Shown here piece by piece: positions 13,992 through 22,200 of a stretch of DNA of 64,000 nucleotides. The notes below the pieces were generated by a model. It saw only the letters and a program-made list of their open reading frames with translations, made no database searches and was not told where the DNA came from. The stretch comes from Kiritimatiellia bacterium (GTDB lineage: Bacteria > Verrucomicrobiota > Kiritimatiellia > RFP12 > UBA1067): contig JAFTCL010000048.1 in assembly GCA_017454745.1 (NCBI GenBank), positions 22,534 through 86,533 of the forward strand. The letters are read 5' to 3'. Numbering within the stretch: the stretch's first letter is position 1; each line of letters starts with the position of its first letter. A program made the translations under genes and the position numbers.

Positions 13992-14966
13992 ATGTCCGCC
14001 CGCCCAACCACCTTCGTCGCTTTAGTGCTGCTGGCCGCCGGAGCGGTCGCGCAGTCGGTAGGCGGCATTGGGGGTATGAGCGTGTCCGACGACCGGGTCC
14101 GACGCCGCTCCGTGCCCGACCCGGTTGCCGCCAGCGGGGAACTGCGGATGCGGAGTCTGCAAATTACCGTATCGCCGCCGCAAATGTACCTCAACGTGGG
14201 CACCGACCGGCGGTTCGGCCCCTACGCGCTTTCGGACGGCACGGAGATCGGCGTCGCCCAGCCGCCGTACAAACTAACCGCCGTGCGGGACGGCAGTTTT
14301 TCCGTGCGGGGGCCGGATCAAACGGTTTACGGCCCGTTCAGCAGCGCCGACGGCACCGCGATAACGATCGGCCGCCAGAGCGCCGTTGTGCTGCGGCCGA
14401 CCGTCGACCTCGCGGTGCGGTTGGAATGGAACGGCATGAAACGGCAGAAACCGGTCATCGGCGTCGCCGTCGCCAACCAGCCGCTTTATCAGGCGCTTTA
14501 CGAACTTCGGGACCACTTCGCGACGGTGATAAACCGCGTAAATTACGAAACCGCCGACCGGGAGATACAAGGCGTGCCGCGCCGCATCCACTACCCCAAC
14601 GGACGCAGCAACGCCGGGAACGTCGTGTCGGTTTCCAAGCGCGACAAGGAAAACTCCGAATGGCAGGCCGAACGCAGTTGCGTCAACGCGGTGGAAAGGC
14701 TTTTTAACCAACGTTTCCATATCAAGTCCTACGCGTTAACCGACCGTTTCACCAGCCACTTCCGGATGCCGGCGGGACGGTATCTGCTTTGCGCCATGCA
14801 GCGTTACAGCGACCCAAGGCAATCATCCACCTTCGCCGGATCAAAAACCGCCATCTGGTGGACGGAATTCACTTTCGACGGACAAAGCGGACTAAGCCTG
14901 GAGTTGACGCCTGAAAACGCCGTCAGCTGGAGAGAAATTTTCCCGTTCCAAACAATCAGCGAATAA
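13992..14966 (+). CDS. Secreted hypothetical protein
   Basis: Signal peptide MSARPTTFVALVLLAAGAVAQS. 324 aa with no recognisable motifs. Lies directly downstream of 11655-13988 on the same strand. Confidence 0.5.
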   Translation: MSARPTTFVALVLLAAGAVAQSVGGIGGMSVSDDRVRRRSVPDPVAASGELRMRSLQITVSPPQMYLNVGTDRRFGPYALSDGTEIGVAQPPYKLTAVRDGSFSVRGPDQTVYGPFSSADGTAITIGRQSAVVLRPTVDLAVRLEWNGMKRQKPVIGVAVANQPLYQALYELRDHFATVINRVNYETADREIQGVPRRIHYPNGRSNAGNVVSVSKRDKENSEWQAERSCVNAVERLFNQRFHIKSYALTDRFTSHFRMPAGRYLLCAMQRYSDPRQSSTFAGSKTAIWWTEFTFDGQSGLSLELTPENAVSWREIFPFQTISE

Positions 14967-15169
14967 CCGCGCCCGGATTGACTATTGCCCCGGTTTTTGC
15001 TAAACTGTTTTTGATTTTCTTTGGCGGTGTATGCCCTTGAAAGAAAAGCGAGGACGGAATGACGGCGAGAGCAAGATATTTCGCATCAATTGCGGCGATG
15101 TAAAGGTGGCAAACGTGACCTTTGCGGGAGTCATTGTTTGTCGTTTCCATGCCTGAGGAAGGAGACTTT

Positions 15170-16285
15170 ATGAATGAGTTGAAGTATGTCGATCCCAAAG
15201 CCGATCTGACTTTCAAGAAGGTTTTTGGCGAACACCCGGACTTGATAACAAGTCTGTTGAATGCGTTGCTGCCCTTGCCGGAGGATGGCCGGATTGTCTC
15301 TATCGAATATCTTACCCCGGAGATTGTTCCCGATGATCCGCTTCACAAGGACAGCATTGTGGATGTCCGCTGCAAGGATCAGAAAGACCGCCAGTTCATT
15401 GTAGAAATGCAGATGATATGGTCTCCGGACTACAACCAGCGCGCTCTTTTCAACGCCGCAAAGGCGTACTCCCGCGAACTTCCGGCGGGCGGGGACTACT
15501 GCAACCTCAAAACAGTCTATTCGCTGAATCTTTTGAACGACAACCTTGATCTTGATGTTCCGCAGTGGTATCACCTTTATCGTCTGGAACACCACAAGGT
15601 CAAAGGCGAGACGATAGACGGAATCCAGCTTGTTTTCGTTGAACTCAAGAAGTTCGAGCCGCACACCTGGCCGGAGCGAAAGATGGCGGTGCTGTGGCTT
15701 CGTTTCCTTACGGAGATTGACGGCAACACGCGCAAGGCCCCGCCGGAACTGGAGGCGAATCCGGAAGTCAGGAAAGCCCTGGAAATGGTGGAGGTTGCCG
15801 CCCTCACCCCGGAAGAGCGGGCGAGGTACGACGGATTTCAGGACTGGCTCTGCCGCGAAACGCGGCGCGCCAACGCCGAGAAAAGACTAAAGGACGCCGA
15901 GAAAGATCTGGAAAGACTTCCCGAGCTTAAGGCGGAGCTTGACGCGGCAAAGTCCGAGCTTGACACGGCAAAGTCCGAGCTTGACACGGCAAAGTCCGAG
16001 CTTGACACGGCAAAGTCCGAACTTGACACGGCAAAGTCCGAGCTTGACACGGCGAAGTTCGAGCTTGACACGGCGAAGTTCGAGCTTGACACGGCAAAGT
16101 CCGAGCGCGACGCGGCAAAGTCCGAACTTGACGCGGCAAAGTCCGAGCGCGACGCGGCGGTAGAAAAGATGCGGCAAGACAAACTCCGGACCGCCCGGAA
16201 CCTAAAGGCCATGAATCTTGCCAACGAGCAAATCGCGGCGGCAACCGGTCTTACCGCCGCTGAAATCGACGCGCTCCAACCTTAA
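15170..16285 (+). CDS. Rpn-family recombination-promoting nuclease / putative transposase (PD-(D/E)XK; YhgA-like), with an internal heptad-repeat coiled-coil insertion
   Basis: Rpn-like N-terminus KYVDPKADLTFKKVFGEHPDLITSLLNALL. Rpn-type C-terminal tail LANEQIAAATGLTAAEIDALQP. Strong RBS (GAGGAAGGAGAC) before the ATG at 15170. Confidence 0.7.
   Translation: MNELKYVDPKADLTFKKVFGEHPDLITSLLNALLPLPEDGRIVSIEYLTPEIVPDDPLHKDSIVDVRCKDQKDRQFIVEMQMIWSPDYNQRALFNAAKAYSRELPAGGDYCNLKTVYSLNLLNDNLDLDVPQWYHLYRLEHHKVKGETIDGIQLVFVELKKFEPHTWPERKMAVLWLRFLTEIDGNTRKAPPELEANPEVRKALEMVEVAALTPEERARYDGFQDWLCRETRRANAEKRLKDAEKDLERLPELKAELDAAKSELDTAKSELDTAKSELDTAKSELDTAKSELDTAKFELDTAKFELDTAKSERDAAKSELDAAKSERDAAVEKMRQDKLRTARNLKAMNLANEQIAAATGLTAAEIDALQP
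15927..16166 (+). repeat. About 11 tandem copies of a 21-bp unit (GCAAAGTCCGAGCTTGACACG) encoding [SELDTAK]n inside the Rpn gene
   Basis: Near-perfect in-frame 21-bp tandem repeats. The last copies are degenerate (TTC/CGC variants). Confidence 0.9.
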
Positions 16286-16331
16286 TCCCCTTTCGCGGAT
16301 TTTATTGTTCCGGCCAGGATTAATGCCAGGA

Positions 16332-17681: not shown

Positions 17682-19034
17682 TTACTTCACTTCCCACACG
17701 CCGCCGGGGCCGAACAGGCGGTCGAGGAGTGCGGGCATGAGACCAAGGCGCTGCACCAAGTCCGCCCCGAAATACCTCGCGCGCATATAGGGAATACCGG
17801 CGTACGTCTCGCGGAAGCGCGCGCGGGAGACGCCGATCTCCTCCGGCTCCGCCGGCGCACCCACCTTGCGCAGATTCTCCTTAACTTCCGCGAAAGGCAT
17901 GAGCTGCGCGCGGATCTTCGCGGCGAGGTCGCCCCAGTTGTCGCGGATCGCCTTCAACTCCTTGCGGAGCGAGTCCTTGGACGGAAACTTCTTCGCGTAT
18001 TCGAGTTCCGCGCGCGTGACGTGCGCGGGACGGCCCGGAAAAACGGACGGGAAAGTTGCCTTCACGGCATCGAACGACGGCCACCACGCGGCGACCTTTT
18101 CCTCCACATCCATTTTCGAGAGGTCGTGCTCCAGTAGGAATTCGAGCGTGGCGGTGGAGACGAGAGTGCCGATGCCCACCTTGAAACCGTGCGACACGAA
18201 TCTACCGTTGAAGGAGAGGTCCTCCATGTCCCAATAGTGCGACACCTGATGCTCGGTGCCGCTCGCCGGGCGCGAGGAACCCATCGCCTGCATGGCAAAC
18301 GCGCTCATCACGAGGCCTTCGCAGAGTTTGCGCACTTCGCGCTCGTCTCCGGAAGCGCAGCCGGAGGGATTGGAGAGCGTGTCGCGCAGGGGATCTTGTA
18401 CGAGCCTCCACGCAAGGGGGTGTATGGCTTCGGCCCCGACGAGGTCGGCGATTATCCAGTCCGCCCCGGCGGGGATCTTCGCGATGAGGTCCGCGTATCC
18501 GCTCGCGGTCATCTCCTTCGGCGCGGCCGCCGCGACGGCGCTGTCCACGATGCAACCGAGCGGCGCCTTGCAGTCCATCGTCTGTTTCATGCCGTCTTTC
18601 GTAATGGCGGCGCCGTATGCGGTGTAGCCGTCCATCGAGGCGGCAGTGCCCACGACCATGTACCGAAGACCCAGTTCGCCGCAGGCGCGTTTGGTGAGAT
18701 CATTGATGACGCCGGAGCCGACGGCCACGGGAATCGCGCCGTCTGCGGCGGCTATAGCCCCGCGCACTTCCTCCACCTTCCCGTAGGTGGCGTGAAAGTC
18801 GGAACCGTCGGGGTTGATGACATACTCGGTCACCTCGCGTCCGGCCGCCTTCAGGATTTCGTTCACGCGGATTCCGGCCACAGCCCGCGTATTCGGGTCG
18901 TCTATCACGATAGCCTTGCCCGCCTCCGGGAACAGCTCGCCGAACATACGCGCGACGGCCTCGGTAGCCCCCGGACCGACCTCGCACGCCTTCGTATCGG
19001 TGGTCTTGGTCAACGCCTCTTCTATCATCGTCAT
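17682..19034 (-). CDS. Iron-containing alcohol dehydrogenase / dehydroquinate synthase-fold enzyme resembling sn-glycerol-1-phosphate dehydrogenase (AraM/EgsA family)
   Basis: Glycine-rich NAD-binding segment VAVGSGVINDLTK. G1PDH-like overall length and architecture. The ATG at 19034 has an AGAGGA RBS, whereas the track start at 19082 is a TTG. Confidence 0.5.
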   Translation of the reverse strand: MTMIEEALTKTTDTKACEVGPGATEAVARMFGELFPEAGKAIVIDDPNTRAVAGIRVNEILKAAGREVTEYVINPDGSDFHATYGKVEEVRGAIAAADGAIPVAVGSGVINDLTKRACGELGLRYMVVGTAASMDGYTAYGAAITKDGMKQTMDCKAPLGCIVDSAVAAAAPKEMTASGYADLIAKIPAGADWIIADLVGAEAIHPLAWRLVQDPLRDTLSNPSGCASGDEREVRKLCEGLVMSAFAMQAMGSSRPASGTEHQVSHYWDMEDLSFNGRFVSHGFKVGIGTLVSTATLEFLLEHDLSKMDVEEKVAAWWPSFDAVKATFPSVFPGRPAHVTRAELEYAKKFPSKDSLRKELKAIRDNWGDLAAKIRAQLMPFAEVKENLRKVGAPAEPEEIGVSRARFRETYAGIPYMRARYFGADLVQRLGLMPALLDRLFGPGGVWEVK

Positions 19035-19140
19035 TTTGCAGTCCTCTTGTGTTTGCCTAAAAATCTCCGAACTTGAAACCAATATATATTTTTAGCACAA
19101 CACGGCCGCTTGAGTCAACAATGACTTGCAAAACACGGCG

Positions 19141-19170
19141 GACAGGGTGGGAGATAGGGAGGGACGCCCC
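19141..19170 (+). repeat. Second copy of the REP-like G-rich repeat (GGACAGGGTGGGAGATAGGGAGGGACGCCC)
   Basis: Matches 3372-3416. Lies in an AT-rich leader upstream of the giant gene. Confidence 0.55.
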
Positions 19171-19296
19171 CACGCGAAAAATACGGGGCGAATCGGTTTC
19201 GGCTTGACGGGTAAGGCATACAAATGTTATCTTCATAATATTTTTCTTTTTTCTGTTGCACGTTAAGTTAACGATTGTCAGGAAAGGTTATTAATC

Positions 19297-22200
19297 ATGA
19301 TGAACGGTTTTTTGCGTTTTGTGCAAACGGGATGTCTAGTTTTCACATCTCTAATTCTCCTGATGGCGGACAACGCAAATGGGTTGACCGCCTACTCTTA
19401 TGTCCAGAAGGGGCTGGCCGCCTGTTGGGACGGTATCGACAACGCAGGGTCCGGGTCGCACGATTCTTCCGTCCGCACATGGAAAGATTTGACCGGAAAC
19501 GGCTACGACGGCATATTATCGGATATCGTTTCGTGGGAGGACAATTGCTGGTCCACCGCAGTGAGCGGCCGCCCCGTTAAGCTTCCGAATTCGTTCTCCT
19601 ATCTCACCGCCGCACGGACTTTCACCGTGGATTGCGCATTCAGCCCGTCCAGGGCCGAGAAGAGCGCTTCGGCTCGCGAAACGGTTTTCGGACAGTACGA
19701 CGGCAGCTACAACGGCACATTCAACATCGAACACAACCACAACAACCATCCCGCCGGATGCCTTCGTTTTTACATGAATAAAGGGCAGATCGACAAATAC
19801 AGCACGGGTGTGGTTCTGGCCAACCAGAACGCGACGGTCGCGCTGACGGTCACGCCGGCAAAGCAGGTTCTATACATCGACGGCGCGAGCGACACCGTCT
19901 CCACAACCAGTCTGTCCACATTGTACTCCAGCAAAGACACTTACATCGGTGGCGAAACGTCTCGAGAAAGCTTTGGGTTCCGGGGGCGCTACTACGGTTG
20001 CCGCTTCTACGACCGCGCGTTGACTGCGGAAGAGGTGGCGGTGAACCACGCCGTTGACGCCATCCGTTACTGGGGCGCCTCCCCAAACGATTTCACGCTC
20101 TCCGGCGGATACTGCTTTGACGCAGAAGGCGAGTTGCTGATCGACGTAACCGCCAATGTGACCGACGGAGGCGGCAAAGTCTGCGTCGGCACGGGTGGCG
20201 ACGCCTCCGATGCCATCTCCGCAACCATCAACCAGAACGGCACGGAATCCGTCACCTTCACGGCCGTGCCCGACGAGGGCTACGAATTCGCCACATGGGT
20301 GCTGGAGGACGGTGCGATGCTGGACGAAGGCAGCAGTCTCACCGACCCGACAATCAGCATATACGCAAAATGGCCGCTCGCCGTCACGGCGACGTTCCGC
20401 GAGAAAGGCAAGCTGACCGCCTACTCGTACGTGCAGAAGGGGCTGGTCGCCTGCTGGGACGGCATCGACAACGCAGGCACCGGCGAACATGACGAGGAAA
20501 CCCGCGTTTGGAAAGACCTGACCGGAAACGGCTATAACGGTACGCTCGGCAGCGACGTTACCTGGGCGGAGAATGGTTGGCAGAACGAAGCAAACGAAAA
20601 GCCCGTCTCGCTTGGCTACGGATTCTCCACCGTCACCGAACCGTGCAACTTTACAATCGATTTCACCGTCACGCCGTCACGCGCCCCCTGCCGCGAAATC
20701 TTTTTCGGCCAGTTCGGCTGGGACTACGGCTCAATCAACCTGGAACGGAAGGCAAACGGACGGCTGCGCTGCTATTACAACTATGATGAAGTCGATTTCG
20801 AAAGCACACAGGCGATTGCCGCCAACGAAACGGCGAGCTTCACCGTCACCACCACGCCCGGCAAACAGGCCGTGTGGAAGAACGGCGTGAAAGATGTAGA
20901 GCAGACCGACAAGGCGATCAGCGCCATGTCCGGCGGCAAGCCCACCTATATCGGCGCGGACGGGACAGGAAACAGCAACCGGAAGAGCTTCAACTTCCAC
21001 GGCACCTACCACGGCTGCCGCGTATATGACCGCGTACTGACCGACGCCGAAATCGCCGTAAACCACGCGGTCGACGCCATCCGCTACCGTGGGGCGTCCG
21101 CCGGCTCGTTCACACTCTCCGGCGGTTATTCCTTCAACAATTCGGGCAACTTGTTAATCGACCTGACCGCGACGGCCTCGGCCGGCGGCAAGGTCTGCTC
21201 CGGAACGGCGGACGTGGCGGCGGCTACCGCCGTCGCCACCATCAGCCAGGACGGAACCGTTTCCGCCGCCTTCACCGCCGTGCCGGACAATGGCTACGAA
21301 TTCGTAGCGTGGGACGTGGAAAATGGCGGCACGATCATCGGAGGTTCGACGTCCGACGCGACGATCAACATCTCCGCCCGGTGGCCGCTCGTTCTGACCG
21401 CAGTCTTTCGTCCGGCCCGAGCGGCATTCCCCGCGACAACGGTCGCAGACTACGTGAAAGACGGGCTGGTGATGTGGTTCGACGGCGTGGACAACGCGGG
21501 CGCAGGTCGGCACGACGGTGCGGCGGCGGCGTGGGCCGACCTCTCCGGCAACGGCAACGACGCCGTTGCGGTGGGGCCGGGCCTGGGATGGGCGGACAAC
21601 TCCTGCACCAACGCCATCGACGGCAAGCAGACGGGCGAAGCGGGCCTGTTCAGGCTGAACGGCGCCGTGGCGCCGGTTATCGCCAACCGGACCTTCACGC
21701 TGGAAATGGCCATTCGCCCCGGCTTCGTCAAAAACCGCAAAGTGCTCTTTGGCTCGTACGACGGCGCTAGCGGGTTCAACCTGGAAGAGAACGATTCGGG
21801 AATGTTCCGCGTCTTCTACAACAACACGCCGAACGTCGTGACCACCGTGCCGATGGTGAAGGACGAGGAAGCCGTATTCTCCGTTGTCAGCACGGCGGAC
21901 GGGGTTGCCGTCTATAAGAACGGCGTTCCGGTCTATCGCTACGAAGGGGCGATCGACGCCAAAGGCACGATTGCCGCGCTTGAAGATTCCGTCTATTATC
22001 TGGGCGGAGAGCGGCAGCGCGAAGGCTTCACGTACCGCGGCGCCATCTATTCTTTCCGGCTGTACAGCCGCGCCCTGACCTCGGCAGAGGTGTTGCGCAA
22101 CACGCGGCTCGACCAGCAGCGGCTTCTGGCGAATACGACGCTCTGGTCGGACGCGACGGGCGGATCGTGGATGGATAGCGCCTCATGGAGCGGAGGACTG

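Follow-up and report, generated by a model that had tools for sequence, protein, structure and literature searches.

Why should a nuclease gene carry a tandem array of 21-bp units, in frame, between its catalytic core and its conserved C-terminal tail, and what is to be made of the fact that the number of these units differs between assemblies that are otherwise identical at the same place? The gene that raises this question (rpn, 15170-16285 on the + strand; an ATG start and 371 amino acids (aa) plus stop) lies in a 64,000-nucleotide stretch of contig JAFTCL010000048.1 (assembly GCA_017454745.1) from a rumen Kiritimatiellae bacterium. That whole stretch is referred to as "the window", and all coordinates are positions in it. 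Judged by its profile matches, the gene is a member of the Rpn family of PD-(D/E)XK nucleases, in the PF12784 branch, and it looks like a heptad-repeat version of the hypervariable Rpn module that has been described in Escherichia coli. The answer preferred here, and held with moderate confidence, is that rpn encodes a toxin nuclease with an oligomerization helix that is resized in 7-aa steps by slippage, the length of the helix setting which chains pair with one another and diversifying under phage pressure.

An Rpn-family nuclease with its catalytic residues in place

The family assignment, already made in an original prediction from the bare sequence, is carried by two profile libraries. 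The nuclease core (15194-15832, + strand; aa 9-221) is the part matched by PF12784, at E = 1.6e-43 (a domain now named PDDEXK_2 rather than PDDEXK_7, as it had been called), and the protein scores 95.5 bits against TIGR01784 ([quoted passage not shown]), for which the curated cutoff is 52.1. E. coli RpnA also matches TIGR01784, with 160.9 bits. Pfam splits the two proteins: the window protein is matched only by PF12784, and RpnA only by PF04754 (YhgA-like Transposase_31).

The catalytic residues, the conservation of which had been singled out as a point to check, are kept. Across 84 aligned homologs, D12 (15203-15205), D65 (15362-15364) and Q81 (15410-15412) are invariant, while E79 (15404-15406) and R91 (15440-15442) are at least 90% conserved. 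All five signature residues (+ strand) line up with D11, D63, E82, Q84 and R94 of RpnA, and their spacing mirrors that of RpnA. Mutating RpnA at D63, E82, Q84 or R94 abolishes or alters its activity in vivo (Kingston et al. 2017, PMC5350276). By homology, the window protein would be a toxic DNA endonuclease of low specificity, of the kind known from anti-phage defence.

The array and its alleles

The heptad array occupies 15926-16156 (+ strand). It is made up of one degenerate unit (LKAELDA, 15926-15946) and ten full ones (15947-16156): AKSELDT five times, AKFELDT twice, then AKSERDA, AKSELDA and AKSERDA. The count of 11 in-frame 21-bp repeats given at the outset is therefore a fair one. "Perfect", the adjective that went with it, is not: Tandem Repeats Finder reports a single array (15935-16148; period 21, 10.2 copies, no indels, score 351) with 92% matches, and the longest perfectly 21-periodic run is 76 bp (15945-16020). 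Four of the ten full units are identical at the level of DNA, three of them consecutive (AKSELDT, 15947-16009, + strand). Each heptad places Ala at position 0 and Leu at position 4--the 3-4 spacing of a coiled-coil core--with Lys and Glu flanking; two of the array units have Arg instead of Leu. The array does sit where it was said to sit, between the nuclease core and a conserved tail: the T, G and L of the tail motif ATGLTAAEI are at least 90% conserved. That the 21-bp repeats act at the level of DNA, as iterons or as binding sites, is a reading rejected here: a conserved open reading frame (ORF) contains the array in frame, and homologs keep the period with changed DNA.

The locus recurs, with its synteny kept, in four further assemblies (DUF5060-like gene, 324-aa ORF, rpn, MFS transporter gene, Fe-ADH gene), and comparing copy numbers across them yields the central observation of this analysis. 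The first of these loci (L001) aligns with the window over 13,116 bases with zero mismatches and a single 21-bp gap; another (L003) aligns over 13.1 kb, again with zero mismatches, and with a single 42-bp gap. L002 carries the allele of L001, plus one extra gap, and L004 carries the allele of L003, with one mismatch over 6.9 kb. The corresponding proteins are 371 aa long in the window, 364 aa in L001 and L002, and 357 aa in L003 and L004. The gaps fall in the three DNA-identical AKSELDT units, one of which is absent from the 364-aa allele and two from the 357-aa allele. Copy number at this locus, then, differs in 21-bp steps between otherwise identical assemblies, as had been foreseen for a slippage-prone repeat of strain-variable length. 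The behavior extends to other members of the heptad class: when pairs with cores at least 97% identical are compared, tail length differs in 23 of 28, and in all 23 it differs by a multiple of 7 aa. Every allele observed keeps the rpn ORF intact. To call this variation "contingency-like" is apt only in a loose sense: copy number does vary, but a 21-bp unit never shifts the frame, so that the protein is resized instead of its expression being switched on or off.

A helix that may set chain pairing

The work of Zhong et al. 2023 (PMC10400941), which the original prediction did not bring in, provides the framework in which such variation can be read. A small protein, RpnS, is made from an internal start in each of the five rpn genes of E. 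coli and in one C. difficile gene; it blocks the toxic full-length Rpn nuclease, and the long helix that RpnS and full-length Rpn share is a dimerization interface. In E. coli this helix contains hypervariable 4-aa repeats, the number of which sets which partners pair: one extra repeat in one partner only breaks neutralization of the full-length protein (RpnL) by RpnS, and matching the numbers restores it. Plasmid-borne Rpn protects against T-even phages (PMC10400941, as for all of the foregoing).

What would the corresponding part of the window protein look like? The AlphaFold2 (AF2) model (mdf844e35705c, built with 84 sequences) has a long alpha-helix at aa 214-347 (15809-16210, + strand), with a kink at P251. 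Residues 250-347 are predicted to form one continuous helix, with a pLDDT (predicted local distance difference test) score above 90 across the repeats, and two short helices come after it. The nuclease core is modeled as an alpha/beta fold with modest confidence (pLDDT 50-70). A Foldseek search of the full-length model against the PDB returned no match at E <= 0.001; matches to the full-length model are in any case meaningless, because confidence in the core is low. The conserved tail (16157-16282, + strand; aa 330-371) consists of the end of the long helix (VEKMRQDKLRTARNLKAM) and the two short helices. Modeled alone (aa 318-371, AF2), it forms three helices at a pLDDT of 85.5, and is predicted to be a helix-turn-helix (HTH)-like three-helix module. 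The nearest structures to this tail model in the PDB (Foldseek) are small HTH DNA-binding domains (DeoR, TrpR-like, TetR, NarL), the best at E = 0.79 and none significant. A comparison of the homolog profile with RpnA (hhalign, hmmsearch) aligned only RpnA residues 237-289, which is the RpnA-S region (RpnA-S starts at M244; PMC10400941), with E about 7e-4, and left the core unaligned.

Put together, these elements suggest the following scheme. The nuclease core would be joined to the HTH-like C-terminal module by one very long alpha-helix. Whole units would be gained or lost, the likeliest routes being slippage in replication and unequal recombination between units that are identical in DNA, and each unit would add or remove two turns of helix (about 1 nm) while keeping both the reading frame and the heptad phase. 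The repeat helix would probably be an oligomerization interface, by analogy with the 4-aa repeats of E. coli; in the case of the window helix, the analogy points to coiled-coil dimerization. The length of the helix would then decide pairing--of toxin with toxin, or of toxin with a C-terminal antitoxin fragment--and a change of copy number would diversify Rpn alleles and paralogs, or insulate them from one another, under phage selection. The established footings of this scheme are the family and its catalytic residues, the helical prediction, the C-terminal anchor that heptad arrays have in common with tetrad arrays (see below), and a 7-aa copy-number polymorphism at near-zero sequence divergence. 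Inferred are the toxicity of the nuclease, dimerization through a coiled coil, an RpnS antitoxin made from this gene, a defence role for the window Rpn, and selection on the length of its helix.

A number of observations weigh against the scheme. A global pairwise alignment of the window core with the RpnA core is no better than alignments of shuffled sequences (z about 0), so that the mapping of residues onto RpnA rests on the shared hidden Markov model and on motif spacing. The likeness of the tail to RpnA-S is weak (hhalign probability 26%), and the crystal structure of RpnA-S, 7TH0, is not among the top 50 Foldseek matches of the tail model in the PDB. The tetrad rule by which one added repeat breaks pairing may not carry over to this protein, because a heptad keeps the helical phase. 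An RpnS-type antitoxin might be made from the window gene, by analogy with E. coli. The in-frame start codons that follow the core are M206, V207, M334 and M348 (there is none between aa 208 and 333), and no conserved start codon with a Shine-Dalgarno motif was found at these positions among the homologs. The Shine-Dalgarno-like AGGAAA before M206 is unique to the window allele (close homologs have CGC AAG or CGC AAA), M206 itself is Ile in more distant homologs, and at the codon that corresponds to M334 just 5 of 10 genes have ATG or TTG. Nor was a stand-alone RpnS-like tail gene found in the 80 homologous loci described below or in the window. The four genes that flank rpn yielded no PADLOC matches (coiled-coil noise only), and there is no evident defence island. 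Finally, each allele of the window locus comes from a differently named set of assemblies, so that the behavior of assemblers could contribute to the differences.

Some of these points can be put in context. Sitting among defence genes is a statistical tendency of the Rpn family, not a requirement. And because no conserved start was found upstream of the array, it is conceivable, as something of a long shot, that in the clade of the window gene the array is present only in the full-length toxin and is not shared with an antitoxin; the regulatory logic would then be unlike that of E. coli RpnL/RpnS.

A working part or a neutral spacer?

The original prediction treated the array as an oddity inserted into this one protein. 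It is no such thing. The linkers of 124 retrieved close homologs were scanned for arrays; a clear tandem array is present in 39, about a third, and its period is 7 in every one of them, with units that vary in sequence (AERDAAN, ARADAAN, AKKSELD, ETKLNAT, ATSSQLE, EAEEQRK and others). A second scan, of named genomes and limited to one genome per species, yielded 80 loci with 83 rpn genes, from gut and rumen Kiritimatiellae, Lentisphaerae, Verrucomicrobia and many Bacteroidales: 13 of the genes have heptad arrays, 37 have Gly-containing arrays of period 4, 8 or 12 (EGRA, EKGM, GLEQ and similar units), and 33 have weak arrays or none. An alignment of the tails that begins at the C-terminus shows one conserved anchor, (L)RQxxARNLK...TGL...EI..L, at which arrays of both kinds, heptad and tetrad, stop. 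On a neighbor-joining tree of the cores the heptad arrays are clustered, yet fall in several clades (24 Fitch changes, vs 48 with shuffled labels); the boundary between heptad and low-copy linkers on this tree depends on the threshold. Arrays are thus present in homologs, which together with an invariant repeat length had been named as a ground for giving up the original reading: the length, as already described, is not invariant.

Might the array nevertheless be a neutral spacer, a slippage-prone stretch of low complexity in a helix that only tethers the tail to the core, its variation reflecting the mutation rate alone? The 33 homologs of 83 with weak arrays or none speak for such a view (some of them are only 280-300 aa long, so that the fold can do without a long array), and so does the wide variation of unit sequences among lineages. 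What neutrality does not readily accommodate is that arrays recur in many lineages with a helix-compatible pattern (the Leu/Ala 3-4 spacing being that seen for the window array), that they always stop at the same anchor, and that the number of tetrads has a demonstrated functional effect in E. coli (PMC10400941). On balance, a purely neutral spacer is unlikely.

Alleles or assembly artefacts?

A more skeptical question concerns the central observation itself: are the differences between 371, 364 and 357 aa at the window locus products of short-read assembly? The sources of the alleles invite the suspicion. The 371-aa form is from an NCBI metagenome-assembled genome (MAG), the 364-aa form from contigs labeled "XIEF21-1...scaffold" and the 357-aa form from contigs labeled "k141"; all else is identical save for the one mismatch in L004 and the one extra gap in L002, so that the samples behind them could be one and the same, or close relatives; and the absent units fall in the block of DNA-identical repeats. 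A collapse is not forced, however, because the 76-bp perfect run is shorter than typical 150-nt reads and than the k=141 that the contig names imply. Each of the shorter alleles was also recovered twice, in separate samples or analyses. Like variation is also seen between two cultured isolates of Segatella copri, one of them a complete genome: six copies of ATSSQLE and six of EAEEQRK in one, three and four in the other, with flanks that are 98.6-98.7% identical and with a variant as the last unit of each array. It is seen again over the five tail lengths found in the S. copri-type lineage. That the window alleles are artefacts is therefore fairly improbable. In practice, heptad rpn genes should be regarded as strain markers that evolve quickly in gut metagenomes, and also as sites at which assemblies from short reads may conflict.

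A ruler?

A different function for a helix of adjustable length would be that of a molecular ruler, which sets the distance from the HTH-like module to the active site, or the distance that separates two nuclease heads in a dimer. A change of copy number would in that case alter the position of the cut or the spacing of sites, in a manner resembling the TAEL repeats of EcoR124I/EcoR124II, a precedent cited by Zhong et al. (PMC10400941). As modeled, a rigid helix of about 100 residues that changes by about 1 nm per unit without a change of phase would fit this role, and the structures closest to the tail model are, after all, those of HTH DNA-binding domains. Those matches, however, are the ones that fall short of significance, DNA binding by the tail is not known for any Rpn, and in vitro RpnA has little sequence specificity, if any (PMC5350276). 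A ruler would, moreover, be compatible with pairing through the helix rather than opposed to it. As an explanation in its own right it is distinctly improbable.

Comparison with known systems

The pairing reading draws on the E. coli proteins RpnA-E and RpnP2, with their RpnS partners (PMC10400941, PMC5350276), and it is worth setting out how far the likeness goes. Both sides match TIGR01784 and have a PD-(D/E)XK core with the signature D...D...ExQ...R; both have a variable C-terminus made up of a long helix and a small HTH-like module (predicted, in the case of the window protein); and in both, in-frame repeats within the helix vary in number between near-identical strains. The window core differs in belonging to PF12784 rather than PF04754, and it is not pairwise alignable with that of RpnA. 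The repeat unit in the window is 7 aa (21 bp) long, free of Gly and heptad-phased, while in E. coli it is 4 aa (12 bp) long and consists of one hydrophobic residue and three charged or Gly residues. The window helix is about 100 residues long, in a protein of 371 aa as compared with about 290-300 aa. Lastly, neither an internal start nor an internal promoter is identifiable in the window gene (a consensus scan found no promoter-like site within rpn).

A second comparison is with the tetrad-bearing PF12784 homologs of gut Bacteroidales (P0098, for example, and L073, which has 11 copies of EGRA). They belong to the same clade as the window gene, with cores that are 45-60% identical and with the same tail, and their arrays stop at the window's anchor, (L)RQxxARNLK. 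Their units contain Gly and have a period of 4 or 8, while that of the window is an Ala/Leu heptad. A third is with the Rpn proteins of S. copri (L011 in NZ_CP146523.1; L015), which have heptad arrays at the same position and copy-number steps of 7 aa; that of strain G8 is even 371 aa long, as in the window. Here there are two adjacent arrays (ATSSQLE and EAEEQRK), of units unrelated to the window's, and the second is highly charged (rich in E, R and K) in contrast to the Leu/Ala unit of the window; the core shares about 59% identity with that of the window protein, and the host is of a different phylum and has a genome of lower GC content.

Two further likenesses can be noted. In the HsdS proteins of EcoR124I and EcoR124II, as may be the case here, the number of in-frame helical repeats changes in a nuclease system, with an effect on functional spacing. 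HsdS is an unrelated protein, the specificity subunit of a Type I restriction enzyme, in which a 4-aa unit (TAEL) is present in two or three copies and the effect on recognition-site spacing has been demonstrated (cited in PMC10400941). Classical contingency loci likewise have a slippage-prone tandem repeat within a coding sequence, with a mutation rate that is high relative to point substitutions; the window unit differs in being a multiple of 3 bp, and so alters the length of the protein with no frameshift switching it on and off.

Why should a second repeat length be of interest? Understanding of the Rpn proteins, toxin nucleases and defence proteins that form a widespread family, is only recent, and what drives the hypervariability of their repeats, and how the specificity of pairing is determined, are the questions at issue. 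A gut and rumen clade (Kiritimatiellae, Lentisphaerae, Prevotella/Segatella) that has 7-residue units at the same helix anchor offers a natural comparison with the 4-residue units. Insertion of a tetrad alters both the length and the phase of the helix, and insertion of a heptad its length only, so that swapping and resizing the arrays could separate the two variables. Neither the main text of PMC10400941 nor the accompanying commentary mentions heptads, seven-residue repeats or coiled coils, and full-text literature searches found no further paper that ties Rpn to heptad repeats. One can go further and speculate that Rpn hypervariability has a second solution, distinct in structure, in the heptad arrays: a coiled-coil stalk of variable length and preserved phase. 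Specificity (of one toxin chain for another, of toxin for antitoxin, or among paralogs) would then reside in the length of the stalk or in a ruler-like distance from the HTH module, in contrast to the rotational offset that results from inserting 4 aa. This is something of a long shot.

In some genomes rpn paralogs are found in tandem or within about 10 kb of each other. One locus (L048, 2786-6027) has three copies, two of them equal in length; another (L042, 4001-6043) has two copies with different tetrad units; and two loci on contig CADCCQ010000038.1 (L008 and L043) have different heptad-type linkers. These pairs and triplets are in keeping with the tandem duplications that Zhong et al. describe (PMC10400941).

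Genomic setting and horizontal transfer

Has the gene been acquired from elsewhere? The AT-rich island from which the original prediction argued is certainly there: GC content is 0.47-0.53 over 14750-15800, vs about 0.62 on either side. The rpn gene has the lowest GC content of the 36 genes in the window (0.552, vs 0.609 +/- 0.024), and its GC content at third codon positions (GC3) is 0.675, vs 0.771 +/- 0.049 for the window genes. At second codon positions (GC2) it is 0.356, near the bottom of the window range (0.34-0.54), so that a part of the GC deficit is due to amino-acid composition. Over 81 loci, the GC content of the core follows that of the flanks with a slope of 0.52 (r = 0.74): rpn is about 5 points below its surroundings in high-GC hosts and about 4 points above them in low-GC hosts. 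This pattern fits with movement between hosts or with a constrained composition.

In relatives that have an MFS gene 90-93% identical to the one next to rpn (L086, L097, L098 and L105), rpn, the 324-aa ORF and the DUF5060-like gene are all missing from beside it. The 3' end of the MFS gene is precisely where synteny with these four loci stops (window 16286-16331). Since the relatives lack the upstream genes as well, rpn is located at a synteny breakpoint rather than at a clean insertion site, and a search of the relatives with the adjacent MFS gene as query found no clean empty site for rpn. No integrase was found at the rpn locus and no inverted or direct repeats flank the gene; the 64-kb window has no rpn paralog, no tRNA gene, and no Rfam family at the gathering threshold; and collections of plasmids and phages contain only rpn relatives of less than 60% identity. 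Of the original argument for horizontal acquisition, what stands is a compositional outlier at a synteny breakpoint; no clean empty site, tRNA gene, integrase or terminal repeats were found. Acquisition by horizontal transfer is plausible, and low GC content fits with it but does not prove it.

The further proposition, that the gene is an IS-like (insertion sequence) transposase and the low-GC island a mobile element, takes its encouragement from older names ("nuclease family transposase" for PF12784, "transposase" for phrog_3300) and from the compositional break at the edge of synteny, but is effectively excluded by the lack of flanking terminal inverted or direct repeats and of paralogs in the window, and by the published conclusion that rpn genes (COG5464) move horizontally yet are not transposases, since they are without terminal repeats and target-site duplications, there being no evidence that rpn transposes autonomously and no known autonomous transposase with a PD-(D/E)XK fold (PMC10400941).

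The neighbors of rpn are DUF5060-like, a hypothetical protein, MFS_1, Fe-ADH_2 and Laminin_G_3. A second dip in GC content (0.46-0.50, at 18950-19550) lies between the Fe-ADH gene (- strand) and the gene for a 1574-aa Laminin_G_3 protein (+ strand), and is probably a divergent promoter region.

Start signals, overlapping ORFs and minor matches

The ATG of rpn is preceded, at a distance of 5 nt, by the Shine-Dalgarno motif AGGAG (15160-15164, + strand), as read from the sequence. The identical protein MBQ9431691.1 at NCBI (from a Kiritimatiellae MAG) has its start called at the TTG at 15179, three codons downstream of the ATG. In the AT-rich region 5' of the gene, a consensus scan, which found 2 sites where shuffled sequences led one to expect 0.6, picks out TTGACT-17-TAAACT with a TG (14978-15006, + strand), a candidate sigma-70-like promoter of rpn.

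An ORF of 86 aa on the other strand (14956-15216, - strand) covers the first codons of rpn together with part of the AT-rich stretch upstream of the gene. The ENA annotations of L001-L004 call it as a 64-aa gene; it has no Pfam match, and is probably a spurious call. Across the array, several ORFs of 74-128 aa are open in other frames and on the other strand over 15838-16244 (15939-16163 on the + strand and 15838-16224 on the - strand, for example); these are shadows of the array, a consequence of the absence of stop codons from the repeat.

A phmmer search of PDB sequences matched aa 101-239 (the second half of the core) to the Thermus/Deinococcus single-stranded DNA-binding protein (2cwa; E 5.9e-4, 22 bits), probably by chance; the other matches were weak and to coiled coils only. 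Precomputed Pfam annotations place PF27070.1 on some close homologs (P0012, P0013, P0015, P0019 and others) and PF24161.2 on proteins of the ATSSQLE type; it may be that PF27070 represents the C-terminal domain of Rpn as a curated model. Lastly, three loci on contigs labeled Escherichia coli or Lachnospiraceae "cleanbin" (L033, L026 and L046) have Bacteroidales-like rpn genes that are about 55% identical to the window core; these could be binning or contamination errors, or could be instances of transfer across phyla.

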